DNA of 64,000 bases from an uncultured Thermoplasmata archaeon (GCA_964353355.1 CAYGVT010000017.1:24567-88566); one strand, 5' to 3'. Counted from the first letter of the stretch, positions 3,316 to 33,242 are shown. Numbers and translations: made by a program. The notes: generated from the letters alone by a model not told the origin.

Positions 3316-3319
3316 GGGG

Positions 3320-9579: not shown

Positions 9580-9582
9580 CCG

Positions 9583-11157: not shown

Positions 11158-11160
11158 ACG

Positions 11161-16404: not shown

Positions 16405-17175
16405 ATGGCATTCTGTTCGTTCTGTGGCACCACGCTCCATCCTGGGGTCGCATTCTGCTATGCATGCGGGGAGAAGGTCCTGCCTCCCCCCCAGGCCGCC
16501 CCCGGGGCACCGCCTCCCCCGCCTGCGCCTGCCGCAGTCCCCCAGCAGCAGACAGTCCCGACGCCCTCCCCGGCTGTCGCTCCTGTTCCCGCACATGGTC
16601 CGCCGTCCCCTCCGAAGGCCCCCCAGGTGCAAAAAGAGGCCCCCTCGGTCGAGCAGGCGCCGCCCCAGGTCGCGGTGGCCAAGGGCACCTGCCCCCGATG
16701 CGGGAAGGAGCTGCGACCAGGGATGGCATTCTGCGTGAGCTGTGGGGCCAAGGTCGACGCCCAACACCCCGCGCCCCCGACCTCCCAGTCCCCGCCCTCG
16801 GCGCCGAAGCCCCCGAAGGCGGAGGAGGCCATGGCGGCTCCCAAGGCGCCCGCTCCTGCGGGTGCGTCCTGCGCAAAGTGCGGCAAGCCGCTCGAACCGC
16901 AGGCGAGGTTCTGCCCGTCCTGTGGCACGGCCGTTGAGGCCAAGCCGGCGACGGCCGCCCCCACGTCACCGGTCCCGACGCCCGCACCGACCCCACAGCC
17001 CGTCCAGCTCCCGGCCCCGACACCGGTCGTGGCAACGGCGCCCGCTTCACAGGCGCCGACCGCACGGATATGCGCGGGATGCGGGAAGCCGCTCCACCCC
17101 CAGGCGGTCTTCTGCATAAGGTGCGGTAGGAAGTCGGAGGTGCCCCCCGTCACCTCGGTGACTGGTTCATCGTGA
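16405..17175 (+). CDS. zinc-ribbon repeat protein (four DZR-type zinc ribbons separated by Pro/Ala-rich linkers)
   Basis: 256 aa. Four copies of CxxCG-x(8-12)-FCxxCG: FCSFCGTTLHPGVAFCYACG, CPRCGKELRPGMAFCVSCG, CAKCGKPLEPQARFCPSCG, CAGCGKPLHPQAVFCIRCG. GGAGG 8 nt upstream of ATG. Confidence 0.7.
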   Translation: MAFCSFCGTTLHPGVAFCYACGEKVLPPPQAAPGAPPPPPAPAAVPQQQTVPTPSPAVAPVPAHGPPSPPKAPQVQKEAPSVEQAPPQVAVAKGTCPRCGKELRPGMAFCVSCGAKVDAQHPAPPTSQSPPSAPKPPKAEEAMAAPKAPAPAGASCAKCGKPLEPQARFCPSCGTAVEAKPATAAPTSPVPTPAPTPQPVQLPAPTPVVATAPASQAPTARICAGCGKPLHPQAVFCIRCGRKSEVPPVTSVTGSS

Positions 17176-17654
17176 AGGAGACGACGGACAAGACCGCGAG
17201 GTCGGTGGACAACTACATGGCCGACGGCGTGGTCTCGCTCGGCATCCGCCCCTTGCGGGACCAGCCGAACGAGTGCCGCAAGGTCGCGCGCATCTCAAAG
17301 CCCAGGGGCACGAAGCGCTCCAACAACATCATGCAGGTCGACAAGGACCGCGAGGGGCTGAGCCTGCTGCCGCTCGAGCAGGAGATCTGCGGGCTCAGTC
17401 CGTGAGGCGGCGGGATGTCCAATCCCATAATGAGTGCAGGGTCTACCTGACGGAATGTCCCTCTGTCTCCAATCGGGCCATTGGGACATATGCACGTCTT
17501 TGTCAGGATGCCCCAAATCCTCAGGCAAATCAATTGACATCGGAAAGCGGTGACCTTGGTGCAGGGAGTGTCTCATTCCACTGGCCATTTCACCAAGTGT
17601 GGGGTTCCCTGAAAACCGTAAAAGACCGTCAAGGCATTCCCCTTATTATATGAC

Positions 17655-17990
17655 CGGAAGGCTTTTTAATACCCTGGGGCCATAGATTCCCGGTAAGGGA
17701 GGGAAGCCCGGGTGAGGAAGTCACTAGTGGTGGGGGTCCTAGCGGTCCTGCTCGCATTGCCAACCTTCGTAGGCCTACCGCATGAGGCCCCCGCGGACGG
17801 TCAGCCTTGGGACGAGGCTCAGGTCGGACCGCGCATCACCGCACCGAATCTGGCCGAGGTCTCCGAGATATTCCGTGGCCTCCAGGGTTTCTTCACCGAG
17901 AACCTCGGCCTGGTCGACAATCCCGAGGTCAGATTCTACGCGCAGGGGGACGCTCTGTCGGTTGGGTTCACGCTCGATGGCCTCATCCTA
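17655..17990 (+). repeat. duplicated promoter plus 5'-CDS module (copy A), ~80-85% nucleotide identity to 26605-26940
   Basis: Aligned by eye: ...TTTTTAATACCCTGGGG...GGTAAGGGAGGGAAGCCCGGGTGAGGAAG...GGTCCTAGCGGTCCTGCTCGC...TTCTACGCGCAGGGGGA... shared with the region upstream of and within gene 26660. Confidence 0.7.
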
Positions 17991-20900
17991 TTGCTGTCAG
18001 ATGACCGCACTTCGGATGGCACCTCGACCGGTGAGGGCCCCTCCGAGACCTACGTTCTCAAGCTGTCGTTCGAGGATGACCGGTCGGTGGAGCCCGTGGG
18101 CTTCCATGCGGTGCCGCACTTGACGAACTCATTCGTCGGCAACGACGCATCGAAGTGGGTGCGCGGGGCCAGGAGTTTCGAGGAGGTGAGGTACGAGGGC
18201 CTGTACGAGGGCATCGACCTCAGGTTCCACTTCAAGGATGGACGCCTGAAATACGACTTCATCCTAGCCTCGTGGGCGGACCCCGGCTCGGTGCGGATGA
18301 GATACGATGGTGCCACCGGGCTCCGTGCGGACCCGGAGACCGGCGACATGTTGGTCTCGACGCCCATGTGCACGCTCAGGGACGAGCGGCCCGTCATCCT
18401 CTGGGAGGCGGCGGGTATGGCAAGGAGCTGCCCTGGCGATTTTGCGCTCGGCGGGAATGGCTCTTGGGGTTTCGCCCTGCCCGAGGGGGTTCCGCGTGGC
18501 GTCCCGATGACCATTGACCCTGGACTGGCATGGTCTACGTTCCTCGGGGGTTCCGGGAGGGATACCCTCTACAGCGTGGCTGTGGATAAAGATGGGTCAG
18601 TATATGCCGTCGGACAGACCGACTCGATCAACTACCCGACCACTTCGGGAGCCTACGACCGCACGCAGAACCAATATAAAGGGCTCGTGACGAAACTGGA
18701 CCCATCGGGCTCAACGATACTGTTCTCCACCTTTTTCGGGGGGACGAACAGCACTGTCCCGGGTGGTAGCACTGTGACCCAGTCCGCTGGAATGACACCC
18801 GATGGGAACCTTGCCCTGGCGAGCATCACATATTGCGATGATTGCCCGACAACGCCGGATGCCATCTACGCGACACATAGGGGTAGAGCAGACATTTACT
18901 TCCTCGTCCTCAATCCACAGGGGAGCGACTTGGTCTATGCCTCATACCTTGGAGGAAGCGATCGGGACGTCGCGCATGACCTCGTCATCGACGATGAAGG
19001 CGCCGTCGTCATCGTGGGCGAGACCAGCTCTCCCGATTGGACGGTCCCGCCCAATACGTACTGCAGCACCTACAATGGCGTCAATGACGTGTTTGTCCTG
19101 AAGTTGAGCCCCACGTACCATGAGATACGAGCGATGACCTACCTCGGTGGGACATCTAACGATATGTCCTACCAGACCGACGTCGATTCCGACCAGAACA
19201 TCGTGGTTACGGGCGGGACATTCTCGACCGACTTTCCAACAACACCGGGTGCCTATTGCACGACCCATGCAGGATACCTCGACAGCTTTCTCACGAAGTT
19301 CGACCCGAATTGCACAAGATTGATCTTCTCCACAATGTACGGGGGGACTGGCCAGGACGATGGCTGCCGTCTCCGTGTGTGCGGTGATGGCAGGATCTGG
19401 GTCGGGGCCGAGACGACCTCCCCGGACTACCCCGTCACTCCTGATGCCCAATACGATAGCTTCTCGGGAGATGTCGATCCTGGCATCTCGGTCTTTGATG
19501 CTACCGGGTCGCGCTTGCTTTATAGCACCTACTTCCCGGGGACGAGATACGAATCGGTCTACGGCTCGGCTATCGATGAGAAGACGAATCAAATCTATTT
19601 CTACACCCGCAGCAGCTCAACCGTGCTGCCAACGACCAAGGGATGCTATTGCCCCGTGTACTCCGGAGGTTCCAATGATTTGCTGGTCGTCGGTTTCAAC
19701 CTCACAACTTACAAGTTCGATTACTGCACGTACATAGGTGGGTCGGGGGTGGATAATGTCGATCTCTCATGGGGCGACACCATGATGGTCGATGATGAGG
19801 GCTATCTCTACCTCGCAGGAACGACTGCCTCCACCGATTTCCCGACGACCGGGCAGGCGGCGACCCGTGCATACGCCGGAGGTACATTCGATGGTTTCGT
19901 CCTCAAGCTCGACCCGAGGCCAATCCAAGACCCGCCGGAAAAACCGACCGGTCTGGTATCGAGGCCTGGCAACAATCAAGTTGAGGTCATGTGGGATAGT
20001 CCGACAGCAGAAAACTACAAGGTTCACAAGTACCAGGTCTTCAGGTCGCCCAGGGACAGGCTGGGGCCAGATGCCATCAAGTGGTTGGTCACAAAGGGAA
20101 CATCATACAAAGACATGACGGTACAGAACGGGAAGACATATTATTACTGGGTCTCGGCCTTCAATAGTGTGGGGGAAGGCGCCCTCGCCGGACCGGTGGA
20201 TGGTCGGCCCATGGGGTCGCCCAGCGCGCCGCAGAACCTCGTCGCGCAGAGCGGAAACGGACGCGTCACGCTCACCTGGACGCCCCCGGCCACCATGAGT
20301 GGCGGGCAACTGCTAGGTTATGTCGTGCTGAAGGGTGGCAACAGCCATGAGCTCGTGCAACATGCCTTGATCGGCGCAGATGATAGGTGGGAGGACACGG
20401 AGGTCGAACTGGGCAAGACCTATTTCTATTCCCTGAAGGCTTTCAATGAGATATTCTCTGGTGAGCAGAGCTCGATTGTCGGTATCAAGGCAAGGGATAG
20501 GGCCTCGGCACCATTGAAGGTTAGTCTGGTGCCCATCGACAGGGGCGCTCTCATCTCATGGCAACCCCCCTTCAGCAATGGGGGCGCCACGATCCTTGGT
20601 TATCACATCCTCAGGGGACCATCCGAGGAATCCATGGAGATTGTCGGGATCACGTCACCATCCGAGCGGTCCCTCCCCAACTATGGTCTGACCAACGGAG
20701 TGGAATACAACTACAGTGTGGCAGCTTTCACCGAGGTGGGCATGGGCTACCCTAGCGAGCCTCTCACGGTCAAGCCAACCGGCACGCCCTCAGAACCACG
20801 CAACTTCATCGCGATGAGAGGCGACGGGTCCGTACGCCTGATATGGGATTCCCCCGCGAACGATGGCGGATGGCCAGTGACGGGTTATAAGGTGTACGCG

Positions 20901-22115
20901 GGGAAGGAAATCCTCGTGGAAATCGAATCGAACCTGAATGCGACGTATTACCTTCACACAGGATTGACGAATGGCGATCCATGGTATTACTCCATTAGCG
21001 CAATGAATAGATTGGGGGCGGGCCCAAAGAGTAACATCTCGTTCGCTGTCCCTCTCGGACAATCGGAAGCTCCCGCTTCATTCATCGTGGAACCGATGAG
21101 GGGTATGGTAAGGCTCTCATGGTATACCCCCCTCGACACAGGAGGGGCACCCCTCTTCGAGTACCGCATCTATCGTGCGATGACGGATTCCCCTTTCGAG
21201 TATCTGAAGGGATTGGCCACCACGGCCCTCAATTATTGGGATTACGAGATCGTCAACGGAAGGACGTACAAGTACTATATCGTCGCGGTGACGGAGATGG
21301 GCGAAGGGCGTTCGACATCCATCGAATCGGCCATCCCATATGGGTCTCCAGGCAGACCATCAGGTCTATTTCTGGAGGCCGGCGACCGCAGAGTGACACT
21401 CCATTGGACCGCTCCGGAGAACGATGGAGGAAGAGCAGTCGAGGGATACAGCATTTTTCGCGGCCTCTCCCCCCAGTCTATGGTGGAACTTCTCAAGGTC
21501 ACGCCACAGGAGACCTACACGGACATGAGCACGGAGCTCACGAACGGAGTCGATTATTACTACAGCATCAGAGCGCTGAATGAGGCGGGCGAAGGACCCG
21601 AATCGGACGTCATGACCGCACGTCCTGCGGGGGTCCCTGGCGTGGTCTCGGATTTCGCTGTCACATCAGAAACGGGAACGATCATACTCACATGGAAACC
21701 GCCGGCCATAGGGGGAGGTCGCTCCGTCATCGGCTACGTGATATACAGGGGCAGGACCATATCGGGGATGGTTGCCTACAGGACCCTCGGTACGGCCCTG
21801 AGCTTCTTGGACCTAGACGTGGAACTGGGCGAAAGCTACTTCTATTCCGTTTCCGCCGTCAATACCGAGGGCGAGGGTGACATTGCCACGCCGAGGCTCA
21901 TCGAGGTACCCCCGAGGATGTCCGGTGGTTGGACCGGAGAATCGGCCCTCTACTGGGTTCTTGTCATTGTGGTGCTCAGTGTCATGACCTTGATGGTCAT
22001 CGTCGTCCTCGTGCGTAACAGGTTCACCCGCCCACCATCACGTCATGGTTCTTCTAAAGAGAAATCGGCCAATCGGACTGGTGGCAAAGCAGATGGTAGG
22101 GGTGGTGGTCGATGA
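17712..22115 (+). CDS. giant secreted surface protein: signal peptide, conserved N-terminal domain, SBBP beta-propeller repeats, ~8 fibronectin type III domains, C-terminal TM anchor
   Basis: 1467 aa, GTG start after GGTAAGGGAGGG. N-terminal domain FTENLGLVDNPEVRFYAQGDALSVGFT. Repeats like DTLYSVAVDKDGSVYAVGQTDSINYPTTSGAYD (SBBP). Repeated FN3 units with LTWTPP/GY motifs. C-terminal TM WVLVIVVLSVMTLMVIVVLV. Confidence 0.85.
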   Translation: MRKSLVVGVLAVLLALPTFVGLPHEAPADGQPWDEAQVGPRITAPNLAEVSEIFRGLQGFFTENLGLVDNPEVRFYAQGDALSVGFTLDGLILLLSDDRTSDGTSTGEGPSETYVLKLSFEDDRSVEPVGFHAVPHLTNSFVGNDASKWVRGARSFEEVRYEGLYEGIDLRFHFKDGRLKYDFILASWADPGSVRMRYDGATGLRADPETGDMLVSTPMCTLRDERPVILWEAAGMARSCPGDFALGGNGSWGFALPEGVPRGVPMTIDPGLAWSTFLGGSGRDTLYSVAVDKDGSVYAVGQTDSINYPTTSGAYDRTQNQYKGLVTKLDPSGSTILFSTFFGGTNSTVPGGSTVTQSAGMTPDGNLALASITYCDDCPTTPDAIYATHRGRADIYFLVLNPQGSDLVYASYLGGSDRDVAHDLVIDDEGAVVIVGETSSPDWTVPPNTYCSTYNGVNDVFVLKLSPTYHEIRAMTYLGGTSNDMSYQTDVDSDQNIVVTGGTFSTDFPTTPGAYCTTHAGYLDSFLTKFDPNCTRLIFSTMYGGTGQDDGCRLRVCGDGRIWVGAETTSPDYPVTPDAQYDSFSGDVDPGISVFDATGSRLLYSTYFPGTRYESVYGSAIDEKTNQIYFYTRSSSTVLPTTKGCYCPVYSGGSNDLLVVGFNLTTYKFDYCTYIGGSGVDNVDLSWGDTMMVDDEGYLYLAGTTASTDFPTTGQAATRAYAGGTFDGFVLKLDPRPIQDPPEKPTGLVSRPGNNQVEVMWDSPTAENYKVHKYQVFRSPRDRLGPDAIKWLVTKGTSYKDMTVQNGKTYYYWVSAFNSVGEGALAGPVDGRPMGSPSAPQNLVAQSGNGRVTLTWTPPATMSGGQLLGYVVLKGGNSHELVQHALIGADDRWEDTEVELGKTYFYSLKAFNEIFSGEQSSIVGIKARDRASAPLKVSLVPIDRGALISWQPPFSNGGATILGYHILRGPSEESMEIVGITSPSERSLPNYGLTNGVEYNYSVAAFTEVGMGYPSEPLTVKPTGTPSEPRNFIAMRGDGSVRLIWDSPANDGGWPVTGYKVYAGKEILVEIESNLNATYYLHTGLTNGDPWYYSISAMNRLGAGPKSNISFAVPLGQSEAPASFIVEPMRGMVRLSWYTPLDTGGAPLFEYRIYRAMTDSPFEYLKGLATTALNYWDYEIVNGRTYKYYIVAVTEMGEGRSTSIESAIPYGSPGRPSGLFLEAGDRRVTLHWTAPENDGGRAVEGYSIFRGLSPQSMVELLKVTPQETYTDMSTELTNGVDYYYSIRALNEAGEGPESDVMTARPAGVPGVVSDFAVTSETGTIILTWKPPAIGGGRSVIGYVIYRGRTISGMVAYRTLGTALSFLDLDVELGESYFYSVSAVNTEGEGDIATPRLIEVPPRMSGGWTGESALYWVLVIVVLSVMTLMVIVVLVRNRFTRPPSRHGSSKEKSANRTGGKADGRGGGR

Positions 22116-25100
22116 TACCGGCGCGTTTGACGGCTCCCCTCATGGCCGTCCTTGTCATCTTGCCCGTCCCATCCGTGCTCCTCCCGGACTTGGGGGAGGA
22201 CCCGGTGGATCTCGGAACTGTCTCGCCACCCCTTTCTATGGACGGCGGGTCATCAAAGGCGTTGGAAGGTTTCCGCAACCTCGATGGGCACTTCATAGAA
22301 AACAAAGGCCAGTTGGACAATGCGGATGTCAGGTACTACGCGTTGGGGGACCCGCTCTCCGTGGGCCTCACGCCTACAGGTTTGATCCTCACGCTGTGCG
22401 GTTCGCCGGACGGGGGCACGACCACAGCGAGTGCCATTCATCCCGAAATGGTCGTGTTCAAGCTCAACTTCTTGGGAACCGCCCCAGTCGAACCCTCCCC
22501 CTGCGCGGTTGCGACGCATCCCACAAACTACTTTATCGGGAACGATGCCTCGAGATGGGTCCAGGGCGCGAGGAGCTATTCAGAGGTTCGCTATAGCGAT
22601 ATCTATCAGGATGTGGATCTCAGGCTCTACTTCAATGAAGGTATGCTGAAGTACGAGTTCCTCGTCGGGACGGATGGTGACCCAAGTTCCATAAGGCTCG
22701 GTTACGAGGGAGTGGACGATGTGAGGGTAGAGGCGCTTACGGGCGACATGCTCGTGCGCACCGCCATCGGCACCATCAGGGATTCAAGGCCCATCATCAC
22801 GTCCACGAGGGGTGAGAGGGAGACACGCATCGATGCCAGCTTCGAGCGCCCCGAAAAGGGGGTCTTCGGCTTCAATGTTCCTCATGATGTCCTCGGTCAA
22901 AGGCCTTTCATCATAGACCCCGGTCTCCGGTTCAGCACATATCTGGGAAGTGCAAAGCGCGATGAGGTGTTCTTCTCCACTGCAATCGATTCCGATGGCA
23001 ACATCATGGTCGGGGGTTACACCGGTTCTAACGATTTTCCCACAACACCAGGTGCGTACAATCGCACATGGAACGCGTACAAGGCCTTCATTGCCAAGTT
23101 CGACCCGACACTCTCGGCCATGTTGTTCTCAACCTTCTACGGGGGAGATGAATCCAATTCATTGTCCGCGACATTCGACTATAGCATTGACGTCCTCAAA
23201 GATGACAGGATCCTCGTGGTAGGGCATACGACCGCGAGCAACTTCCCTGTCACGGATGATGCATTCGAGGAGCACTACCAGGGATTGTCAGATGGATACA
23301 TTGTGGTTTTGAGTGGGGATGGGGGGTCGCTCCTCTATTCCTCTTACTTCGGTGCGGAACAGGACGACGGGGGGTTCTCGACCGCGCTCCTGCAGGATGG
23401 CTCGCTCCTGATCATGGGAGCCACCGCATCATCCGGACTGCCCACCACCCCTGGCGTATTCCAGACGACGAAGTCCAAAGGCACCGATATCTTCCTGGCC
23501 AAGTTCGACAGCTCCCTGAAGCGGCTGGTCTTCTGTACCTACATCGGGGGCTCGGCCGAAGATATGTGCATCTCCGGTGGAACGGTGGGCTGTGACCTAT
23601 ATGGTGACATATACCTGGTCGGTTATACATCCTCAGGTGACTTCCCGACCACCAGCAATGCCTACAGGAGGATACCCCAGGGAAACCTCCCTGACATGTT
23701 CTTCATGAAGCTCACTTATAACGCGAGCCGTCTCCTCTACGGTACTTATCTAGGTGGTGATGGCGAGGATTATCCCGTTTGGCTCCATGTGACACAGATC
23801 GGACAGGCCTACGTCCTTGGTTACACGAATTCCAAGGACTTCCCCGTGACCGTCGATGCCGCCGACACAACACTCGATGGGGCTTGGGACGGCTTTATCC
23901 TGGCGCTTGACCAGTATGGCTATCCCAGATACTGTACACTGTTCGGAGGAGATGGCGATGATTGTATCTATCGTGGGGTTTTTAATCCAGAGAGGGATCT
24001 CATCATATTCGCCGGCGAGACCTCATCAACCGACCTTCCCTGGACGACCGGCTGCTATTGCCCCGTGCTTGCTGGCGGGCATAACAACATCTTCGTTGGG
24101 GGGTTCTCCAGGATATCCTATTCCCTCAGGTATTGTACCTACATGGGTTCCCCGGGTACCAATTCACAAGATTCTTCGACGATACGGCGCCTCTCCCTCA
24201 AACGGGAAGGCGAACTGGTCATGGCGGGGCTCACAAAGTCGACGGACTTCCCCACCACCCGAAGTGCATTCATGAGGGTCGGTTGCGGTCTGAACTGGGA
24301 TGGGTACCTCTTTGTCCTGGACCCGACCCCAGTCCCGCCACCTGTGGCTCCCACAGGATTCAGCGCCCTTGCTGGCGATGCCCATGTGAGACTAGAATGG
24401 GACAGGCACATCAATGAGAGCTATGTCACACTGGGGTACGCGCTCTTCCGCGGGCTCACTCCAGACCAGCTGGACCTCTTGGCCAATACCACCGCAAACA
24501 CCACGTACGAGGATACCAACGTCACCAATGGCAAGCGGTACTATTACGAGGTTAGGGCCATAAACAGCATGGGTGCGGGTGAAGCTGCCGGTCCCTTGGA
24601 GGCAAGGCCCATGGGCATGCTCTCCGAGCCCCAAAACTTGACGGCGAGCACTGGCGAAGGGACCGTCGTCCTTACCTGGGACCCTCCGAGCTCAACTGGC
24701 GGCGTGGAGGTCCTCGGCTACCACATCCACAGAGGTTCATCGGACACCAACCTGATACCACAGGATTCTGTCATCTCGCAGATGAATTTCACGGACACCA
24801 GCGTGCTCCCTGGGACCTATTACTGGTACGCAGTCGTGGCCTACAACGAGCGGGGCAATGGCACCGTGAGCACTCCGTTACAAGTGAAGGCGCTGGGCAG
24901 GGCATCCGCGCCCACGATGCTCAAGGTCAACGCGGGGAACGGATGGGTTGACATCACCTGGGGTCCTCCGGAATCGACGGGAGGAGCACCCATCCTCGGC
25001 TACATGGTCTTCAGGGGACCCTCGCCCGAGGAGATGGCACCTTTGTGCAGCACAAGCCCGCAGGGATTGGGCCACAATGATACGACCGTCGAGGGCGGAG

Positions 25101-26539
25101 TAGTCTACTACTACTGCGTCGTCGCCATGACCGAGCCGGGCGAGGGCCGTCCTACCGAGGTTCTCAGCGCGCGACCCACGGGCGTTCCTGGGCCACCGCA
25201 GGGTCTCGCGCTAAGGGCGGGCGACAAGCAGGTCCGCCTCACATGGACGGGTCCGCTGACCGACCGCGGCATGCCGGTCACGGGTTACAGGGTCTATCTC
25301 GGTGCCGACCCCGACTCGCTCAAGCGCGTGGAGAGCCTCGGCGATGTGCGGGAGTACACACGCAGGGAGCTCGAGAACGGGATCATGTACTACTTCGCGG
25401 TCTCGGCGGTCAACCTCAACGGCGAGGGCCCCAGGTGCGCTGCCATTCCCGCTATACCCCTGGGCGTTCCGGATGCGCCCGTCAACCTGACGGCATCGGT
25501 TGCGGTCGACCAAGTCAGGCTCCGCTGGAACCCACCGCTGGACACCGGGGCCGCTCCATTCCTCGATTATGTCGTCCTGCGGGGGGCCTCAAAGGATGCG
25601 CTCATGCCATTGTTGGCATCCCCCCTAAGGGATGCACGCGAGTATTTGGACACGGACGTGGAACTAGGCGCCACGTACTTCTACAGCGTGCTGGCCATCA
25701 ACCCGTACGGTGCGGAGGGCCCGCGGACGGACTGCGAGGAGGTGCTGGTCGCGGTGCCTCCAGGTGCGATAACCGGCTTGACGGTCGACGCTGGGGATGG
25801 ATGGGTGAACCTGACATGGGCTCCTCCCACCACCACAGGGGGTCTTCCCGTCACTGGCTACATCGTCCTCAAGCGGACCGTGGACGGGGACCTGGCGGAG
25901 GTCGCGTACCCAGGGGAGACCTATCTCAAGGATGTCTACGTGGACAACGGCATCACGTACTTCTACGCGGTACGTGCCATGAACAGGGCCGGGTCAGGGC
26001 CGTACGAGGTCGTGGTGAACGCCACCCCGTGGGGAAGCCCTCCTGCGCCAGAGGGGCTCACCGTCCATCTTCGGGACGGTAAGGCCGTCGTACGGTGGGA
26101 GCCTCCATCGGGACCCTGCGCCCCAATCACAGGGTACGTCCTGATGAGGGGGAACTCCCTCACCATGATGAAAATCGTCGCCGAGTTGGGCTTGGAGACC
26201 GAGTACATTGATTCAAGCATCGAGCCCGGTAAGGTCTATTATTACACAGTGAGGGCGAGAGCCGCGGTTGGTGACGGGACCGAGGCAAAACCTGCGAGAA
26301 TACAAGTACCCGAGGACCTGGGTCTGCTCAAGGTGGCGACAATAGCCATCGGTGTACTTTTCATGGTGCTTGTGATGTTCCTCATCGCGGGATGGCAACG
26401 TGCCAGGACGGTCAGGGCCGACGAGGAACACGAGGGTGAGCATCGAGGGGAACATACGGTGGACGACCAAGGCCCTCCGGAGGATTCATCGGACGCTGAC
26501 CCGGTCGGTGAGGGCACAGACAAGGGTGTGGGGCCTTAG
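22112..26539 (+). CDS. giant secreted surface protein, paralog of 17712-22115 (N-terminal domain, SBBP repeats, ~9 FN3 domains, C-terminal TM anchor plus acidic tail)
   Basis: 1475 aa. ATGA overlap with the stop of the upstream gene. FIENKGQLDNADVRYYALGDPLSVGLT N-terminal domain matches the paralogs. TM IAIGVLFMVLVMFLIAGW followed by acidic tail. Confidence 0.85.
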   Translation: MIPARLTAPLMAVLVILPVPSVLLPDLGEDPVDLGTVSPPLSMDGGSSKALEGFRNLDGHFIENKGQLDNADVRYYALGDPLSVGLTPTGLILTLCGSPDGGTTTASAIHPEMVVFKLNFLGTAPVEPSPCAVATHPTNYFIGNDASRWVQGARSYSEVRYSDIYQDVDLRLYFNEGMLKYEFLVGTDGDPSSIRLGYEGVDDVRVEALTGDMLVRTAIGTIRDSRPIITSTRGERETRIDASFERPEKGVFGFNVPHDVLGQRPFIIDPGLRFSTYLGSAKRDEVFFSTAIDSDGNIMVGGYTGSNDFPTTPGAYNRTWNAYKAFIAKFDPTLSAMLFSTFYGGDESNSLSATFDYSIDVLKDDRILVVGHTTASNFPVTDDAFEEHYQGLSDGYIVVLSGDGGSLLYSSYFGAEQDDGGFSTALLQDGSLLIMGATASSGLPTTPGVFQTTKSKGTDIFLAKFDSSLKRLVFCTYIGGSAEDMCISGGTVGCDLYGDIYLVGYTSSGDFPTTSNAYRRIPQGNLPDMFFMKLTYNASRLLYGTYLGGDGEDYPVWLHVTQIGQAYVLGYTNSKDFPVTVDAADTTLDGAWDGFILALDQYGYPRYCTLFGGDGDDCIYRGVFNPERDLIIFAGETSSTDLPWTTGCYCPVLAGGHNNIFVGGFSRISYSLRYCTYMGSPGTNSQDSSTIRRLSLKREGELVMAGLTKSTDFPTTRSAFMRVGCGLNWDGYLFVLDPTPVPPPVAPTGFSALAGDAHVRLEWDRHINESYVTLGYALFRGLTPDQLDLLANTTANTTYEDTNVTNGKRYYYEVRAINSMGAGEAAGPLEARPMGMLSEPQNLTASTGEGTVVLTWDPPSSTGGVEVLGYHIHRGSSDTNLIPQDSVISQMNFTDTSVLPGTYYWYAVVAYNERGNGTVSTPLQVKALGRASAPTMLKVNAGNGWVDITWGPPESTGGAPILGYMVFRGPSPEEMAPLCSTSPQGLGHNDTTVEGGVVYYYCVVAMTEPGEGRPTEVLSARPTGVPGPPQGLALRAGDKQVRLTWTGPLTDRGMPVTGYRVYLGADPDSLKRVESLGDVREYTRRELENGIMYYFAVSAVNLNGEGPRCAAIPAIPLGVPDAPVNLTASVAVDQVRLRWNPPLDTGAAPFLDYVVLRGASKDALMPLLASPLRDAREYLDTDVELGATYFYSVLAINPYGAEGPRTDCEEVLVAVPPGAITGLTVDAGDGWVNLTWAPPTTTGGLPVTGYIVLKRTVDGDLAEVAYPGETYLKDVYVDNGITYFYAVRAMNRAGSGPYEVVVNATPWGSPPAPEGLTVHLRDGKAVVRWEPPSGPCAPITGYVLMRGNSLTMMKIVAELGLETEYIDSSIEPGKVYYYTVRARAAVGDGTEAKPARIQVPEDLGLLKVATIAIGVLFMVLVMFLIAGWQRARTVRADEEHEGEHRGEHTVDDQGPPEDSSDADPVGEGTDKGVGP

Positions 26540-26604
26540 ATTCGGACGGGGATGTCCTTTATGAATCGTTTAAGACAGCAAAGGTATCCGTTTGTTAAAT
26601 AACC

Positions 26605-26940
26605 GCAAGGTTTTTTTATTCCCCAGGGTCTTGGTTGCTAGGTAAGGGAGGGAAGCCAGGTGAGGAAGACAGTGATGGTGGGGGTTCTAGCGGTCCTGCT
26701 CGCTTTGCCAACTCTCGTGAGCCTGCCGCAAGGTGCCCCTGCAGACGGGCAGTCCTCGGACGGGGCCCGGGTCGTCCCACGCACCACCGCACCAGACCTG
26801 GCCGAGGTGTCCGGGATGTTCCATGGCCTCCCGGGTTTCCTCACCGAGAACCTCGGCCCGGTCGACAACCCCGAGGTCAGGTTCTACGCGCAGGGGGATT
26901 CTCTCTCCGTAGGCCTCCCACGCGACGGGCTCATCATCAC
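26605..26940 (+). repeat. duplicated promoter plus 5'-CDS module (copy B), counterpart of 17655-17990
   Basis: GGTTTTTTTATTCCCCAGGG...GGTAAGGGAGGGAAGCCAGGTGAGGAAG...GGTTCTAGCGGTCCTGCTCGC...TTCTACGCGCAGGGGGA. Confidence 0.7.
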
Positions 26941-29900
26941 CCTCCTCCTCCTGGCATCGAATGGGGCGTCGCCCCCGGACGGGAAGGGCGATGTCCGCGA
27001 AGTCACCGGCGCACCCGCTGGGGGCACCGTACCTGCGGCCTGGTGGGGTGCGGGAACGGATAGCTGCATAGGACCCATGTGGGACCAGAACGGGCTCACG
27101 TTCATGGACGGCACGGGCACCTCGGCCACCACTGGCGATCCCTTCGCCTTCAACCTGACGGTGGAGGGCGGCGATGGGGTGCGGAACGTCCGTGTTGTTC
27201 ACTGGTTCGGTAATCGCACCGCAGAGGCTCGCAACGAATCGATGACAGCGGTCGACATCGACGCGGGTGGTAATGGCACCTATGGCCACGACGGCCTCGT
27301 CGTCCCCTCGGACTCGCTGGCGCCCATCGGCTACTCGTTCGCGGCCATGGCACCGAACGGCACATGGGCCTCCACGCCCCCCAGGTCCATCGAGGTGATC
27401 GACAACGACCTACCCATGTTCGGACAGGACCTCTCGGACGCCGAGATGCTCACGGGCAGGAATGTGCGGCTGGCAACCGAGGTCCAGGACAACATCGGCG
27501 TGGACGAGGTCTGGGTGATGTACAACACAACCCAGCCGCCAGTGTTCCCCTATCCGACGATGGTCGAGGAGAGCCCAGGGGTGTGGAGCTACGACGATAT
27601 CGCCCTCCCCATCGACTCGCTCGCGACATTCCACTACAAGTTCATCGCGATAGACACGAGCGGTGGGGTCCAGCACTCGGCGGAAAAGTCCAAGGTCCCG
27701 ATTGATGTGGTCGCTCCCTCCATCGTTGCCGACCGCACGGGCGAGTGCGTGAAGGGCATAGCCACCAACATCACGGTGGAGGCCGAGGACAACATCGCCG
27801 TCGCATCCGCACACGTCACATACTGGCTCGGCGGGACGATGGTCGGGGACAACCTGACGATGGTTTCCAGGGGGTTGGGCATCTTCAGCATCGGGGTCGA
27901 GGTCCCGCGCCATCCGACGGGGCAGCTCACCTACATCGTCAACGTCACCGACGGCCGGTCATGGGCCACTGGGCCGATGTGGAACAGGACGCCCGTGAAC
28001 AAGCCCCCGGAGGTGCAGGGGCTCCTTGAATGGCGGGTCACCGAGGGCATCTATGACGCCTTCGACCTCTCCACGCGCATCGTCGACCCGAACGACCCCC
28101 TCTCCGCCATCACGGTCACATGCTCCGCGCCCAACATCGACGTGGACGGTCTCGTCCTCCATGCCCGTTACGACGTGCCCATCCCGGACCATCTGTTCGA
28201 CATCAACGTGTCGGACGGGGAGGACGTGACCCGCGCCCAAGTGTGGGTACACATCCTGAAGATGAACGACCCGCCAGTGTTCACCAGCATACCCCCGACG
28301 GGCGGCCAGGTCAACGTGACGTACTCCTACCAGGTCGCATACACCGACGAGGAGCGCGAGGACACCCACACCTTCTCGCTCGCCGCAAGGCCCGATGGCA
28401 TGACGGTGGACGCGAACGGCCTCGTCACCTGGCGGCCCACGCGGACCCAGCACGATTACCAGGAAGTCAGCCTTACGATATCGGACAGCGAGGCGATGGT
28501 CCACCAGAGATGGACAATATTCGTGACCCCCGAGCCCAAGCCCAAGAACCAGGCCCCTGTGTTCAAGGGCTCGCCCCCGAGGGCGGCGCAGGTGGGAACG
28601 GAGTACAGCTGGGACGCCGAGGCGACCGACGCCGATACGGAGGACACGCTCTACTTCCACCTCCTCACGGGCCCGGCCAACTGCTCCTTCGACAACCGTA
28701 CAGGCATGCTCAGATGGACACCTTCGTTCCCCGGGAATAATGTCTCGGTCGACGTGCCCTTCGAGCTCGAGGTCACCGATGGGTACGACCATGTGAGGCT
28801 GCCCTTCGTGGTGAGGGTCAGGAGCCTACAGGACGCACCGCCATCGATCATCGGCACGATGGACGACGTGACCATCACGGGCCCGTGGAGGACGGGGCTC
28901 TCGGAGCACATGAGCGACCCGGACGATTCCGTTGCGAACCTCACGTGGCGCATCGAGGTCAGCGACCCGGAGCTGCTGTCCGCGACAGTGGAGCTCGGGA
29001 AGCTCGTTCTGCGGCCAATGGTAGGTCGCCAGGGGAAGGCGGAGATCGTGCTCTACCTCGAGGACCCTTCGGGTCTCTATGACACCGTGACGTTCGATGT
29101 GCGGGTGGTGGAGGACGGGCCTGCCATCCCGGCGTGGCTTCTCGTGGTCCTCGCCGTCGTGCTCCTATTCATCCTAGCTGGCGGATTGAGCATGAGGCGC
29201 TCCGCCAGGAGGGAGGCCGCGCTCAGGGCGGCCGAGCGCGGCGAGGTCATCGCCGAGGTCGAGGAGGCACCAGCGGCGCGCGCGAAGGGCTCGGCCAAGC
29301 CCTCCTACATCGTAGAGGAGGTCCTCGTCGTCTACCGCGACGGGCGCCTCATCGTGGATTGCGCGCGCGAGGAGTGCCGCACGAAGGACGCCGACCTGAT
29401 GTCGGGCATGCTCATCACCATCCAGGGCATCATCCAAGACGGGCTAGAGCGCGGCGGGGAGCTCGAGAGCATCAAGTACGGCGACAACACCATTGTCATG
29501 GCCTGCGGCGACCACATCAACGTCGCGACCGTCATCTACGGCGAGCCGGACGGCGAGCTGAGGGACAGGGTCGAGAGGATGCTCGCGAGGGTGGAGGGCT
29601 CCTTCGCGGGCGTCATCGAGGAGTGGACGGGCGACCTCGCGGTCTTCAAGGGGATCGACGGGATGGTCGCGCCCATCCTCAAGCCGACGGCCGGGCTCAC
29701 GCGCGCGGACATCCAGAAGACGGGGGCCTACGTCGACGTCACGCTCCTTAGCGCGGTGGACTTCCACCGCGGCTACGTGCGGCTCAAGGTCGCGACGCTC
29801 AACGCGACCAAGGACGTAATCCTGGACGCGGCCGTGGAGGTGCGGTACGACCCGGACATGCTAAGGCTCGAGCGCATCGACCCGTCCACCATCAAGCTCA

Positions 29901-30577
29901 GGGGCGACCGCGCGACGCTAGGCAACGTCAAGCCCGGCGAGAAGAAGACGGTCGCGTTCCTGTTCGACCCGCAGATATGCCAGGAGACGCACATCGACGG
30001 CACGCTCACCTACTACGACACCAAGGGCGAGCTGCAGCGCCTCGAGATGAAGCGCCGCCAGGCCGACGTCGTCTGCCCGATATTCTTCACGAAGGAGCAC
30101 GCCAACACCGCGATGCTGAGGCGGCTCATCAAGGAGAAGCTGGACCAGTCCGACGTGCGCCTGTTCACCTACACCAAGGACCTCTCGCCCGAGGTCGCGC
30201 TGGTCCTCGGCAAGTCCGTCGCGGGCGGGGACAACGTGCAGCTCGTGCGCGAGTTCGTGGTCGAGGGCCCGCCCTTCGAGGCCGAGGTGTGGTACTACGG
30301 CGAGACCAAGGCGAAGGGCTACCAGATGGTCATGCGCCTGTCGGTCCTCGACGAGAAGAAGGCCATCGAGTTCTTCGCGGCCTCGACGGCGATGGAGCCC
30401 GTGACGGGCCTGCTCGCGGAGTTCCGACGGGACCTCGAGCAAATGCTCGAGGAGAAGTACGCGGGGACGGTCAAGGTGCAGACGGTCCGCGACGAGGTGC
30501 TCAAGCGCGAGCTCGAGCTGCGGCAGCTGTTCCTGTTCACGTTCGGGGAGAGGGAGGACCAGGGTCAGGCCGGCTAG
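26660..30577 (+). CDS. large receptor-like surface protein: signal peptide, N-terminal domain shared with the two SBBP/FN3 giants, cadherin-like/He_PIG domains, TM helix, cytoplasmic roadblock/LC7-like domain and ~250-aa C-terminal domain
   Basis: 1305 aa, GTG start. N-terminus MRKTVMVGVLAVLLALPTLVSLP...FLTENLGPVDNPEVRFYAQGDSLSVG. TM WLLVVLAVVLLFILAGGL. Cytoplasmic SYIVEEVLVVYRDGRLIVDC...DADLMSGMLITIQGIIQDGLERGGELESIKYGDNTIVMACG matches 14896-16149. Confidence 0.85.
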   Translation: MRKTVMVGVLAVLLALPTLVSLPQGAPADGQSSDGARVVPRTTAPDLAEVSGMFHGLPGFLTENLGPVDNPEVRFYAQGDSLSVGLPRDGLIITLLLLASNGASPPDGKGDVREVTGAPAGGTVPAAWWGAGTDSCIGPMWDQNGLTFMDGTGTSATTGDPFAFNLTVEGGDGVRNVRVVHWFGNRTAEARNESMTAVDIDAGGNGTYGHDGLVVPSDSLAPIGYSFAAMAPNGTWASTPPRSIEVIDNDLPMFGQDLSDAEMLTGRNVRLATEVQDNIGVDEVWVMYNTTQPPVFPYPTMVEESPGVWSYDDIALPIDSLATFHYKFIAIDTSGGVQHSAEKSKVPIDVVAPSIVADRTGECVKGIATNITVEAEDNIAVASAHVTYWLGGTMVGDNLTMVSRGLGIFSIGVEVPRHPTGQLTYIVNVTDGRSWATGPMWNRTPVNKPPEVQGLLEWRVTEGIYDAFDLSTRIVDPNDPLSAITVTCSAPNIDVDGLVLHARYDVPIPDHLFDINVSDGEDVTRAQVWVHILKMNDPPVFTSIPPTGGQVNVTYSYQVAYTDEEREDTHTFSLAARPDGMTVDANGLVTWRPTRTQHDYQEVSLTISDSEAMVHQRWTIFVTPEPKPKNQAPVFKGSPPRAAQVGTEYSWDAEATDADTEDTLYFHLLTGPANCSFDNRTGMLRWTPSFPGNNVSVDVPFELEVTDGYDHVRLPFVVRVRSLQDAPPSIIGTMDDVTITGPWRTGLSEHMSDPDDSVANLTWRIEVSDPELLSATVELGKLVLRPMVGRQGKAEIVLYLEDPSGLYDTVTFDVRVVEDGPAIPAWLLVVLAVVLLFILAGGLSMRRSARREAALRAAERGEVIAEVEEAPAARAKGSAKPSYIVEEVLVVYRDGRLIVDCAREECRTKDADLMSGMLITIQGIIQDGLERGGELESIKYGDNTIVMACGDHINVATVIYGEPDGELRDRVERMLARVEGSFAGVIEEWTGDLAVFKGIDGMVAPILKPTAGLTRADIQKTGAYVDVTLLSAVDFHRGYVRLKVATLNATKDVILDAAVEVRYDPDMLRLERIDPSTIKLRGDRATLGNVKPGEKKTVAFLFDPQICQETHIDGTLTYYDTKGELQRLEMKRRQADVVCPIFFTKEHANTAMLRRLIKEKLDQSDVRLFTYTKDLSPEVALVLGKSVAGGDNVQLVREFVVEGPPFEAEVWYYGETKAKGYQMVMRLSVLDEKKAIEFFAASTAMEPVTGLLAEFRRDLEQMLEEKYAGTVKVQTVRDEVLKRELELRQLFLFTFGEREDQGQAG

Positions 30578-30732
30578 GGCCAAGGGACGGGCGAAGGGGC
30601 GGAACGAGGTGTCGAGCTCGCGCCGGCTCTAGCAGGAGAACCGCACCAACGCGCCGTGTGACGCCCACGACCAGACGCAATCGTAGCCTTTAAGAACCCC
30701 CCGACCATGCCTTCTCCCGGCGGTGCGTCGCG

Positions 30733-31668
30733 ATGATAGTCACCGAGGGGTTGACGAAGCGCTTCGGCAAGCTCGTCGCCGTCGACGGGCTCGGCATCCA
30801 CGTCCGCGAGGGCGATATCTACGGCTTCCTCGGCCCCAACGGCGCAGGCAAGACGACGACCATCCGCATGCTCGCGACGCTGCTCCGGCCCACGGCCGGC
30901 ACCGCGCGCGTGATGGGGCACGACATCGTCGACGACCCCAACGCCGTCCGGAGGCTCATCGGCTTCATGCCAGAGCGGCCGGGCTTCTACGAGGAGATGC
31001 GCGCGCGGGACCTCCTGCGGTTCTACGGCCGGTTCTACCGCATCCCCCGCGCGCGGCTCGACGCGCGCATCGAGGAGCTCAGCCATCTCGTCGGGCTCGA
31101 GCGGTTCACCGACGCGAGGGTCAAGGGCTACTCGCACGGCATGCGCAAGCGGCTCGCCATCGCGGCCGCGATGCTGCACGAGCCCCGCATCCTCGTCCTC
31201 GACGAGCCCTCGACCGGCCTGGACCCCAAGGGCGTGATGGAGTTCCGCGAGATGCTGCGCGCGCTCCAGGCGCAGGGCTACACCATCTTCCTCTCCTCGC
31301 ACGTGCTGCCCGAGGTCCAGCAGCTGTGCAACCGCGTGGGCATCCTGAGGAGGGGCAAGCTCGTCGCGGAGGACTCCATCGACGCGCTCACCGCGCGCCT
31401 CAAGGCCCGCACCAAGTCCCGCCTGACCGTGCGCGCGTCCGGGGTGACGGACGCGTTGCTCGCATCGTTGCGGGCGGTGCCCGGGGTCGTCTCGGCCGAC
31501 CGCGCCGAGTGGGGCGTGATGGTGCTCGCCGAGCCCTCGGCCGACGTGCCCGCTGACGTGAACGGGGCCCTTGTCAGGGGCGGCGCACGGGTGAGCACCC
31601 TCTTCGCGCAGGAGCCCACGCTCGAGGACGTCTTCCTTGATGTGACCGGAGGTGAGGGCGGTGTCTGA
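30733..31668 (+). CDS. ABC transporter ATP-binding protein (ABC-2/CcmA-like)
   Basis: Walker [10 protein letters not shown], signature [15 protein letters not shown], Walker [14 protein letters not shown]-loop SSHVL. TATA-like CCTTTAAGAA at 30687-30696. Confidence 0.9.
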
Positions 31669-33151
31669 TGCGATGGGGCCATCGGCTGCCTCGCGTGAGG
31701 TCCCTCACACCGCATCACCATCATCGAACGGGTTCATGCTCCACCTCAAGGAGGACCTGTGGGGCGCCTCCGTCATCGCGTGGAGGGAGCTTTGGTCGAA
31801 CCTGAGGTCCGTGAGGACGCTCGTCATGGTGCTCCTGCTAGCGCTCATCTTCCTGGGCGCGTCGTCCGGCTTCTCTAGCCTCTCGCAGGACGAGGGCGGG
31901 ATCGGGGCCGAGGAGTCCTACTCCTACTTAGTCATCGCGATGGACCCGGACGCGCACCTCGACGACCTGGTCGTCCACGTGTACCGAACCCCCACGTTCG
32001 CGCCCGTCGCGGGCCGGAACGTGAGCCTCGCCTACGAGAGCGAGCTCGACCCCAGGTTGACGGACACGACCGACGGGCAGGGCGTCGCCGTGCTGCGGAA
32101 CCTGACGACCGCCGTCCACATCCTGCGCGTGGAGCTGCGGCAGGAGGGCGGCGGTCCCCGCGGCGCCGGGGGGCCGCAGAGCTCCCAGGTCTTCGTCGGG
32201 GGGCAGGACTGGTACCACCCCCTGCTCTACATCGACGTGGGCTCGACCGACCTGGACTCAGACAACTGGGACGACGACATGGTGGCCTGGGTCGTGGACT
32301 CGAACGCCACCCCCGTCGCGGGCGCGGATGTCACGTTGAACGAGGTCATCTCGGCCACCACGGACGCGAGCGGCGTGGCACGGTTCGAGGACGTGAAGGA
32401 GGGAGAGTACAGCGTCAACGCGACGGCGAACGGCCTCCAAGGGCACAGCACCATCGGCCACGAGCCCACGGAGCAGAGGAGCGGCGTGTTCTTCTTCGCG
32501 CTCGAGGGCCCGGACCAGGTGCTCAACCTCGTGGCCCAGATCGCAATCGGGATGCTGGGGCCCATCTACGTCATCGCGATGTGCTTCGACACCATCTCGC
32601 GCGAGAAGCTCTCGGGCTCCATCGACTACCTCGTCTCGAGGCCGATGGGCCGGCGCGCGGTCGTCGCGGGCAAGTGGGCGGGCGTGGTCGCGGCCATCAT
32701 GATGCCCATCATGCTCGTGTCGATGGCGGGCGTGTGGATAATCGCGAGGTCCTCGGACAGGTCGCCGTCGGGCGACGTGGTGGTCGGGTTCCTGGTGTAC
32801 ACGTTCCTGCTCGTCGGCGTGTTCGCGCTCCTGCAGATGCTGTTCTCGACGCTCGCCAAGACCACGGGCACGGCCGTGCTGAGCGGCGTGGGCCTGTGGA
32901 TATTCTTCTTCATGCTCTTCAGCATCATCATCGTGCTCCTGGACGCGTACACCGACCTGAGCAGCGCGGCGCTCCGGAACGCGAGCTACCTGAACCCCGT
33001 GGACCTCTATGCGCTCTCCATGCAGGGTGCCGTCGCGGGGGAGCTCTCGGGCGGCATGCCCACGTGGGCGCCGCCGGTGGCCCTGGTGGTGTGGATGCTC
33101 GTGATGGCGGCGGTGACGACGGAGGTCTTCAGGCGGAGGGCCACCGAGTGA
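31652..33151 (+). CDS. ABC-2 type transporter permease with large extracytoplasmic insert (CarbopepD_reg-like beta-sandwich repeats)
   Basis: Overlaps ATPase stop. N-terminal TM LVMVLLLALIFLGASSG. Insert with TDGQGVAVLRNL and TDASGVARFEDVKEGEYSV motifs. Five C-terminal TM helices. Exact start ambiguous (31652 or a downstream Met). Confidence 0.75.
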   Translation: MRAVSDAMGPSAASREVPHTASPSSNGFMLHLKEDLWGASVIAWRELWSNLRSVRTLVMVLLLALIFLGASSGFSSLSQDEGGIGAEESYSYLVIAMDPDAHLDDLVVHVYRTPTFAPVAGRNVSLAYESELDPRLTDTTDGQGVAVLRNLTTAVHILRVELRQEGGGPRGAGGPQSSQVFVGGQDWYHPLLYIDVGSTDLDSDNWDDDMVAWVVDSNATPVAGADVTLNEVISATTDASGVARFEDVKEGEYSVNATANGLQGHSTIGHEPTEQRSGVFFFALEGPDQVLNLVAQIAIGMLGPIYVIAMCFDTISREKLSGSIDYLVSRPMGRRAVVAGKWAGVVAAIMMPIMLVSMAGVWIIARSSDRSPSGDVVVGFLVYTFLLVGVFALLQMLFSTLAKTTGTAVLSGVGLWIFFFMLFSIIIVLLDAYTDLSSAALRNASYLNPVDLYALSMQGAVAGELSGGMPTWAPPVALVVWMLVMAAVTTEVFRRRATE

Positions 33152-33242
33152 TGCCAGCGCACGCCAGGGGACACCATCCAGCGCATTATCGGGGAAAGCC
33201 TTTATAGAACCCAGGTCATAGTCACCGGGGCCAGGCCAGACC

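Follow-up and report, generated by a model that had tools for sequence, protein, structure and literature searches.

The subject of this report is a 64,000-nucleotide (nt) stretch of DNA from an uncultured Thermoplasmata archaeon (GCA_964353355.1, CAYGVT010000017.1:24567-88566), referred to below as the window, and in particular three very large genes on its plus strand, here called A, B and C. Type I surface proteins are encoded here in a tandem array, in a high-GC archaeon of Thermoplasmata type. Genes A and B resemble one another along their whole length, whereas gene C shares with gene A only a 5' segment, comprising a putative promoter and the first 95 codons, beyond which it continues into a receptor-like body that ends in a large cytoplasmic tail. 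Comparison with relatives in other archaea suggests that gene C is probably a chimera, in which an existing receptor gene gained the 5' cassette of an A-type gene in frame.

A tandem array of giant surface-protein genes

An earlier reading of the same DNA, hereafter the original prediction, had described three giant paralogous surface proteins, and its three open reading frames (ORFs) exist as proposed. Together they amount to 12,750 nt or 19.9% of the window, in line with its figure of about 20%. The array is composed of the following elements.

17712-22115, plus strand: gene A, ORF of 1467 amino acids (aa), with a signal peptide, DUF7948 (aa 61-270), an SBBP beta-propeller (about aa 274-740), seven FN3 domains (about aa 745-1400), a transmembrane (TM) helix (aa 1409-1438, from a hydropathy scan) and a short basic tail
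22112-26539, plus strand: gene B, ORF of 1475 aa, architecture as in gene A
26660-30577, plus strand: gene C, 1305 aa from a GTG start
26945-27094, plus strand: gene C linker, residues 96-145, no detected origin
27095-29104, plus strand: gene C ectodomain, with three 'TTGD'-type Ig-like repeats, a cadherin-like/Big_9 domain and two He_PIG domains
29105-29200, plus strand: gene C TM helix, aa 816-847, from a hydropathy scan
29303-29689, plus strand: first domain of the gene C tail (d1), aa 882 to about 1010, predicted beta-beta-alpha-beta-beta-beta-alpha order, longin/Roadblock-like
29738-30460, plus strand: second and third tail domains (d2-d3), predicted beta-sandwich at aa 1027-1135 (d2) and beta-alpha-beta4-alpha TBP-like platform at aa 1150-1267 (d3)

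Genes A and B have the architecture that had been proposed for them, a common N-terminal domain followed by SBBP repeats, an FN3 array and a C-terminal TM anchor, as Pfam, reading of the sequences and hydropathy all indicate. Three Pfam families exceed their gathering scores in gene A (DUF7948, PF25778, 133.7 bits against a cut-off of 27; SBBP, PF06739, 34.0 against 20.5; fn3, PF00041, 150.6 against 25) and likewise in gene B (145.7, 33.5 and 166.1 bits). Seven FN3 units can be read in each protein, and the hydropathy scan gives each an N-terminal hydrophobic leader and a single TM helix about 30-45 residues before the C terminus. The same three families, with the usual signal peptide and C-terminal TM anchor, are found in other DUF7948/SBBP/FN3 surface proteins, whose genes also stand in tandem arrays on the related metagenome contigs L084 and L085. 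A and B do not have the large cytoplasmic tail that ends about 25 of the listed relatives of some 1,800-1,950 aa (five confirmed by Pfam). Because A and B are 37% identical across 1448 aa, with no nucleotide-level match between them when positions 17000-31000 were compared with the whole window by BLASTN, they are old paralogues along their whole length. The predicted overlap of their ORFs by ATGA is present, so that gene B is probably co-transcribed with gene A. Database searches for a close orthologue of gene A returned none above 39-50% identity.

The composition of these two genes is also atypical. Their GC content at third codon positions (GC3) is 0.70-0.72, against about 0.88-0.97 in nearly all other genes of the window, and a GC trough of 54-60% extends over 17400-24800 in a contig of otherwise 65-71% GC, which could mean either a foreign origin or a relaxed codon bias.

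Gene C continues, as had been predicted, into Ig- and cadherin-like domains (He_PIG and Big_9, with a weak Big_7, in Pfam), a TM helix and a cytoplasmic region of about 458 aa, and its receptor-like character is supported. The ectodomain of about 700 residues bears most of the protein's 17 N-glycosylation sequons. The original prediction had further assigned to gene C the N-terminal domain of A and B, which does not hold. Homology to gene A ends at codon 95, only about 35 of the 214 positions of DUF7948 (a domain that begins at residue 61 in A) are kept, and Pfam detects no DUF7948, SBBP or fn3 in the protein. In comparison with DUF7948/SBBP/FN3 proteins, gene C has just these first positions of the domain and neither propeller nor FN3 array, and the piece is presumably a stub, too short to function as a domain. 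Beyond codon 95 gene C shows no similarity to A or B. The description of three paralogous proteins consequently suits A and B, but not gene C, which matches A in residues 1-95 only.

The best full-length relative of gene C is a 1198-aa protein of a related archaeon (P0002, JGI sample 3300041074), to which it is 44% identical over 1182 aa and colinear from residue 136 to residue 1305, the two ectodomains being 38% identical. P0002 has a plain signal peptide that runs straight into the first Ig-like repeat, with no DUF7948 piece, and the alignment with gene C begins opposite the end of that signal peptide. About 100 nt upstream of its gene ends an FN3-array gene with 34-35% identity to A and B. 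Since P0002, the one relative with a readable contig, shows the same pairing of FN3-array and C-type genes, that pairing is probably older than the cassette.

The 5' cassette shared by genes A and C

The segment common to genes A and C is present in two copies, each with a non-coding and a coding part.

17600-17711, plus strand: cassette copy 1, non-coding part upstream of gene A, aligned with 26550-26659
17643-17651, plus strand: distal AT box of gene A, TTATTATAT
17663-17671, plus strand: proximal TATA-like box of gene A, TTTTTAATA, at -49 to -41 from the start
17697-17703, plus strand: Shine-Dalgarno-like GGGAGGG of gene A
17712-17996, plus strand: cassette copy 1, coding part, gene A codons 1-95 (signal peptide, linker and first ~35 DUF7948 residues)
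26550-26659, plus strand: cassette copy 2, non-coding part, the B-C intergenic region
26591-26602, plus strand: distal AT box of gene C, TTTGTTAAATAA
26611-26620, plus strand: proximal box of gene C, TTTTTTTATT, at -49 to -40 from the start
26646-26652, plus strand: Shine-Dalgarno-like GGGAGGG of gene C
26660-26944, plus strand: cassette copy 2, coding part, gene C codons 1-95 (A-type signal peptide and truncated DUF7948 start)

In the BLASTN self-comparison the cassette is the one strong internal match, with 80.0% identity over 345 nt between 17643-17987 and 26592-26935 (E value 2.9e-68). A MAFFT alignment carries weaker similarity back to about 17600/26550, almost to the gene B stop at 26539, giving a cassette of some 350-390 bp. 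Codons 1-92 of A and C are 81.5% identical in nucleotides and residues 1-95 are 73% identical in amino acids, while identity is 72% in the 70 nt that precede each GTG start and 74% over 74 nt in the upstream repeat (D4). The Shine-Dalgarno region is identical in the two copies, and its 15-mer GGTAAGGGAGGGAAG has exactly two occurrences in the window, directly upstream of both GTGs, where 0.09 would be expected by chance. At the other end the similarity stops abruptly, identity falling to 20% in codons 93-105, which places a sharp 3' breakpoint at codon 95. The original prediction had estimated by eye about 80-85% identity between 17655-17990 and 26605-26940, including the context of the GTG start, and these values agree with it; the pairwise alignment of the two 5' regions that it proposed shows a similarity that is not below 60% and that reaches 65 codons past the signal peptide and about 70-110 nt into non-coding DNA. 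A segmental duplication of promoter and 5' coding sequence is thus supported.

Further searches found no other instance of the arrangement. The window contains no cassette copy beyond the two, a scan of GTDB genomes with gene C residues 1-95 gave no match, which shows that this genome is not among the species representatives and limits the search within it to the window, and a metagenome scan with the N-terminal alignment of A and C retrieved no second chimera, only two loci that both hold complete A/B-type genes. Rfam has no match in the surface-gene locus.

The duplication had been described as recent, but the divergence of the two copies argues otherwise. Between codons 2-95 of A and C the synonymous divergence (dS) is 0.53, the non-synonymous divergence (dN) 0.15 and their ratio 0.29 (Nei-Gojobori), and the differences in the cassette are distributed 11/11/29 over the three codon positions. 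With dS at about 0.53 and nucleotide divergence at 20%, the event does not appear to be recent; the third-position bias and the dN/dS of 0.29 indicate that the frame opened by GTG 26660 evolves under purifying selection, including the part upstream of methionine 53 (M53). One block, codons 54-82 (17871-17957/26819-26905), has fewer third-position differences (4/29, against 28/66 elsewhere; Fisher p=0.009 for a block chosen post hoc), a hint rather than a finding, which might reflect nucleotide-level constraint or an older conversion patch. The longest identical run, considered as a sign of a conversion tract, is 18 nt and not significant (permutation p=0.74).

Both copies of the cassette carry two AT-rich boxes amid DNA of otherwise 65-70% GC. 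The position of the proximal box falls in the range of eight other genes in the window, whose sole AT box is at -37 to -50; among genes with such boxes are those starting at 1813, 30733, 33243 and 59197 and, on the minus strand, 12521-13015 and 42200-43312. The combination of proximal box, short leader and GGAGG-type ribosome-binding site fits an archaeal TATA promoter and, if it does function as one, the A-B operon and gene C would receive the same transcriptional input. Only low-complementarity pairs of inverted repeats, at chance level, flank the cassettes, and an invertible promoter is unlikely for want of meaningful ones.

Public gene calls begin gene C at M53 (P0001, 1253 aa) or M6 (P0101, 1300 aa), for which reason an exact look-up of the protein from the GTG start finds no entry. 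GTG 26660 is nevertheless supported as a sensible start, since it is conserved with gene A and since the differences downstream of it are biased to third positions. It is also favoured because a start at M53 would deprive a protein with a large sequon-bearing ectodomain of its signal peptide; the public call at that position cuts the signal peptide off.

The duplication is not an artefact of assembly, a check that the original prediction had asked for. In Logan, five contigs assembled from four sequencing runs agree with the window apart from 0-2 mismatches.

17363-25270: L003 (ERR3804373), covering the cassette copy of gene A
25254-36227: L001 (ERR3804374), covering the cassette copy of gene C
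25457-30852: L088 (ERR3804373), covering the cassette copy of gene C
23675-30860: L086 (ERR4334728), covering the cassette copy of gene C
23675-30851: L087 (ERR4334727), covering the cassette copy of gene C

Positions 26540-26700 are identical in four of these contigs, one per run, and two 13.5-kb contigs span both cassette copies according to contig-coordinate arithmetic. The same contigs break at similar places: L003 and, by the same arithmetic, both 13.5-kb contigs start at 17363, and three contigs, each from a different run, have their ends at 30851-30860. Assembly breaks therefore seem to recur at the borders of the A-B-C array, from coverage change or strain variation.

The cytoplasmic tail and its family

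The tail of gene C (residues 882-1305, 424 aa) belongs to no Pfam family, and its sequence profile has no relative in the PDB, weak matches to titin and Mediator-17 being either outside the tail or insignificant. An AlphaFold2 model built from 40 sequences (pLDDT 85) divides it into the three domains listed above, and d2-d3 modelled alone (m7131e97e7f8a) reaches a pLDDT of 91.3 and a pTM of 0.84, with ten strands followed by a beta-alpha-beta4-alpha unit. For d1, whose pLDDT is uneven (54-62 in its residues 21-60), the Foldseek matches in the PDB are sigma-adaptin (9ddt_B, TMt 0.66; 4p6z_S, 0.57), mu-adaptins, Mon1-Ccz1 and Fuzzy-Inturned; topology and structural matches agree, and the model of d1 has a longin-like fold. 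The original prediction had suggested Robl_LC7 (PF03259). Pfam gives no such match in gene C at E values up to 5, although a faint echo of it appears in 9 of 40 tail relatives (best E value 0.0035), beside equally faint Cohesin hits in 13 of 40. Compared with Roadblock/LC7 proteins of the MglB type, d1 is similar in size and in its alpha/beta fold, but its order of strands and helices is that of longins.

The modelled d2-d3 has an appendage-type arrangement, a beta-sandwich followed by a TBP-like platform. Its top 17 Foldseek matches in the PDB are the appendages of gamma-COP, alpha-adaptin and beta2-adaptin (some as full-length gamma- or beta-COP chains) and BBS7, with E values of 1.7e-9 to 3.6e-5 over 243-277 aligned columns that include both subdomains; the best of them (9qpq_H, 3hs8_A, 1w80_A, 1e42_A and 1pzd) have E values of 1.7e-9 to 2e-7 over 243-271 columns. 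The global agreement with appendages is low, with TM-scores of 0.28-0.38 and none above 0.5, a root-mean-square deviation of about 16 A and 9-13% identity, which would fit a different hinge between the subdomains. The Pfam families Alpha_adaptinC2, COP-gamma_platf and B2-adapt-app_C find no match, even among weak hits, in gene C and 40 relatives. The appendages of eukaryotic AP and COPI complexes and the longin domains of sigma- and mu-adaptins are therefore the best PDB matches of the tail, yet identity and global TM-scores are low. Homology with adaptor or COPI appendages is not established, and the adaptor-like nature of the tail is suggested by a fold prediction with weak global scores.

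Archaeal regions of this kind have been described before. Makarova et al. (2024; PMC11188069) reported 'adaptin appendage-like' regions of IG and TBP type in archaea, among them Asgard proteins that have a longin domain as well as the appendage region, and a single Methanobacteriales protein whose appendage region is connected to another domain by a TM linker. Such proteins lie in ESCRT neighbourhoods of Methanobacteriales, Halobacteriales and Asgard archaea, and Thermoplasmata are stated to have lost these ESCRT-0 analogues (Makarova et al., 2024). The tail of gene C, compared with them by description only, shows the same order of beta-sandwich and TBP-like platform; it differs in forming the tail of giant Thermoplasmata surface proteins, with no ESCRT neighbour among the genes scanned. 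Neither an ESCRT nor a small GTPase gene was found among those genes, which include all genes around the array.

The tail is widespread. In a set of 5.8 billion proteins it has 59 relatives at 31-84% identity, and all those with a source name are labelled Thermoplasmata or Thermoplasmatota. A phmmer search with d2-d3 against 1.84 billion cluster representatives (50% clustering) gave 507 proteins at E values of 1e-3 or less and 230 at 1e-30 or less; in all but a few of the 150 best matches listed, the match is C-terminal, in proteins of up to 4911 aa. Every instance of the full tail that was found comes from a metagenome-assembled genome of a Thermoplasmata-type archaeon. Among the closest tails (50-66% identity) the commonest architecture is DUF7948, SBBP, FN3 array, TM helix and tail, in about 1,780-1,950 aa, and an ectodomain of A/B type is thus joined to a C-type tail in single proteins (P0105-P0133; L084 50-5770). 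Other tail-bearing ectodomains are of beta-helix/PKD, GH32-like and Ig/He_PIG type. In a neighbour-joining tree of 55 tails the clade containing gene C is split from the outgroup in 100/100 bootstraps and is star-like inside; gene C pairs with P0042, also in 100/100 bootstraps. The P0042 tail is 84% identical, and the protein keeps the TM helix and juxtamembrane sequence of gene C but differs just outside the membrane. Because ectodomains vary and P0042 matches gene C in TM helix and tail but not outside, the TM-plus-tail unit appears to behave as a portable cassette joined to many ectodomains across Thermoplasmata. Domain shuffling is strongly supported as a general property of the tail family. 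Across nine loci, tail-bearing genes have no conserved neighbour that is not itself a giant gene.

The first tail domain also occurs by itself, and an example lies upstream of the array.

14848-16149, plus strand: gene D, 433 aa (probable start ATG 14884), with He_PIG, Ig-like and TM segments and d1, no d2-d3

Gene D corresponds, as a small paralogue, to residues 626-1007 of gene C (39% identity over 387 aa, E value 4e-74, BLASTP), with BLASTN matches between 15716-15907 and 29299-29489 and, on the gene C side, within 28908-29489. Its relatives in the databases include P0096 and P0103, and d1 alone also terminates other giant Thermoplasmata proteins. Proline-rich zinc-ribbon proteins flank gene D just upstream of the array, one with a single motif (13396-14664) and one with three to four (16405-17175). 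A d1-related domain, 24-35% identical and with the motif D.D.VSGMLTAIQDF, is moreover present in the N-terminal cytoplasmic half of bacterial membrane proteins of about 490-600 aa from Nostoc, Woeseiaceae, Thiothrix, Terriglobia and Thermodesulfobacteriota (loci L059 9497-11290, L024 9551-11296, L037 9569-11047, L016 and L073). The literature on DUF7948 and on Roadblock proteins in Thermoplasmatota yielded nothing useful.

Origin of gene C and its significance

The original prediction of a duplication followed by domain shuffling contains two elements that stand, the segmental duplication of the 5' region and a shuffling that concerns the family as a whole, and one that is not supported, the duplication of an adhesin whose C terminus was then swapped. 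As residues 136-1305 of gene C are colinear with P0002, which has a leader of its own, the reverse order is proposed here, namely that gene C derives from an existing receptor gene of the P0002 type that gained an A-type 5' cassette in frame. Illegitimate recombination or a deletion within the array would have fused to the front of the receptor a segment composed of the AT-rich promoter boxes, the Shine-Dalgarno region, the GTG start, the signal peptide and the first ~35 DUF7948 residues. Gene C would then be transcribed and exported by A-type signals and may share its regulatory input with the A-B operon. As a receptor or adhesin it would bind an outside target through its variable ectodomain and couple to cytoplasmic partners through its conserved tail, in which d1 might serve dimerization or GTPase-type regulation, as in longin and Roadblock proteins, and d2-d3 might act as a hub for peptide motifs, as in appendages. 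Taken as a whole, with the array, the capture of the cassette, the shared regulation and the function of receptor and tail, this explanation seems to us somewhat better than an even guess.

Several observations weigh against it. The direction from A to C is read from domain integrity alone, with no close orthologue of A to polarise it. GC3 shows no step at the junction (0.79 in gene C codons 96-245, 0.80 in the cassette) and was dropped as a pointer to a transfer from A to C. The linker behind the junction (gene C residues 96-145) matches neither A nor B nor the heads of other DUF7948/SBBP proteins in any frame. It is a prediction that the promoter and the GTG start are used and that the signal peptide is cleaved, and the public calls start elsewhere, at M53 or M6. 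There is, finally, no conserved partner gene beside the tail-bearing genes, and the function of the tail is deduced from its fold.

The stub of gene C ends inside DUF7948, as it would if an ancestral gene C with a full A-like DUF7948 and SBBP head had lost DUF7948 positions ~36-214 and the propeller through an internal deletion that left 95 codons behind. Suitable proteins exist, for P0003, P0007 and P0008 join DUF7948 and SBBP to C-type 'TTGD' Ig repeats and He_PIG and are 31-35% identical to gene C over about half its length. The closest full-length relative, P0002, has neither head nor stub, however, and the opening of its alignment with gene C opposite the end of its signal peptide hints, weakly, at an old leader past the junction. 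A hidden frameshifted remnant of DUF7948 or the propeller was sought past the junction and rejected, none being present in any frame. A deletion also takes an extra step, as an A-like head must first be copied next to gene C, and we consider this history unlikely, if a serious one. Less likely still is a transfer in the opposite direction, the cassette being native to the lineage of gene C as a relic of a DUF7948-FN3-tail gene of about 1,900 aa and having converted gene A, or an occasional gene conversion that keeps the two 5' ends alike on account of their shared regulation. It is consistent with this that the other full-length members of the gene C tail clade are DUF7948-SBBP-FN3 proteins, that the tail is 66% identical to that of P0105 against 60% to that of P0002, that gene C and P0002 tails are sisters in 1/100 bootstraps only, and that codons 54-82 have few third-position differences (4/29 against 28/66, p=0.009, post hoc). 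The tail tree is nevertheless star-like and does not resolve these branches, an identical run of 18 nt is not unusual (p=0.74), a dS of 0.53 speaks against ongoing homogenization, and the block of low divergence coincides with the most conserved DUF7948 motif (ENLG.VDNPEVRFYAQGD), which is similar in the family members read.

Thermoplasmata are commonly wall-less, like mycoplasmas, and the variable surface lipoprotein genes of Mycoplasma share a 5' non-coding region and signal peptide while their bodies differ. Genes A and C have these features in common with them, and the promoter box of gene C contains a run of seven T where that of gene A has five, so that a switchable family of the vsp/vlp kind, with a shared promoter-leader cassette and switching by inversion or slippage, has to be considered. 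The pair differs from the lipoprotein families in consisting of two copies in 64 kb that are 20% diverged, with no flanking inverted repeats beyond chance level that could serve as inversion sites, no recombinase among the genes scanned, including all those adjoining the array, and no polymorphism of the tract, the T run lying within the 26540-26700 segment that is identical in the assemblies of all four runs; switching is highly improbable. Hardly credible, lastly, is an assembly artefact, or a resemblance of the signal peptides alone that arose by chance or convergence. It is true that signal peptides can converge and that the window belongs to a contig assembled from a metagenome. Against this, the five Logan contigs of the four runs agree with the window, an assembler would not collapse two copies at 80% identity, and the similarity spans about 70-110 nt of non-coding DNA and 65 codons past the signal peptide (E value 3e-68).

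The remainder of the window offers the following context. Upstream lies a tightly packed cluster of five plus-strand genes (1813-12465). Two of them encode VWA proteins (500 and 434 aa), and the others a 1250-aa protein with a terminal double zinc ribbon, an 836-aa protein without any Pfam match and a 524-aa protein resembling Amidohydro_2. Downstream of gene C (30733-36317) are genes for an ABC ATPase, an ABC-2 permease with an inserted CarboxypepD_reg/Ig-like ectodomain and a 1024-aa Peptidase_C25-like protein; C25 peptidases of Thermoplasmatota have an Ig-type region in common with gene C (P0022, P0025, P0028, P0032 and P0034). The sole Rfam match in the window is a 5S rRNA at 55723-55843 (RF00001, 75.4 bits), with no adjoining 16S or 23S rRNA in the window.

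The 5' duplication is in itself an event of an ordinary kind, cleanly documented. If gene C did capture its cassette, the sharing of this segment represents a clean and datable case of the rebuilding of an archaeal surface gene, in which promoter, ribosome-binding site and export signal would have moved as one unit onto another gene body, with a useless stub of a domain left as a record of the move. It is the tail that matters most, as at least 500 protein clusters have a conserved cytoplasmic module of about 420 aa that is without family annotation. A bold interpretation is that the TM-plus-tail unit is a cargo-receptor or adaptor unit of wall-less Thermoplasmata, homologous to the longin and appendage domains of AP and COPI complexes, that recruits a small GTPase, ESCRT-III/Vps4 or the cytoskeleton to an engaged ectodomain; this we regard as doubtful, but if it were true, a lineage outside Asgard that is said to have lost adaptor-like blocks would have them fused to surface receptors in hundreds of its genes. 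Should the resemblance to adaptor domains reflect homology or a mode of action in common, outside-in coupling in wall-less archaea might be sought in these proteins, and they would extend adaptor-like domains beyond Asgard archaea, Methanobacteriales and Halobacteriales.

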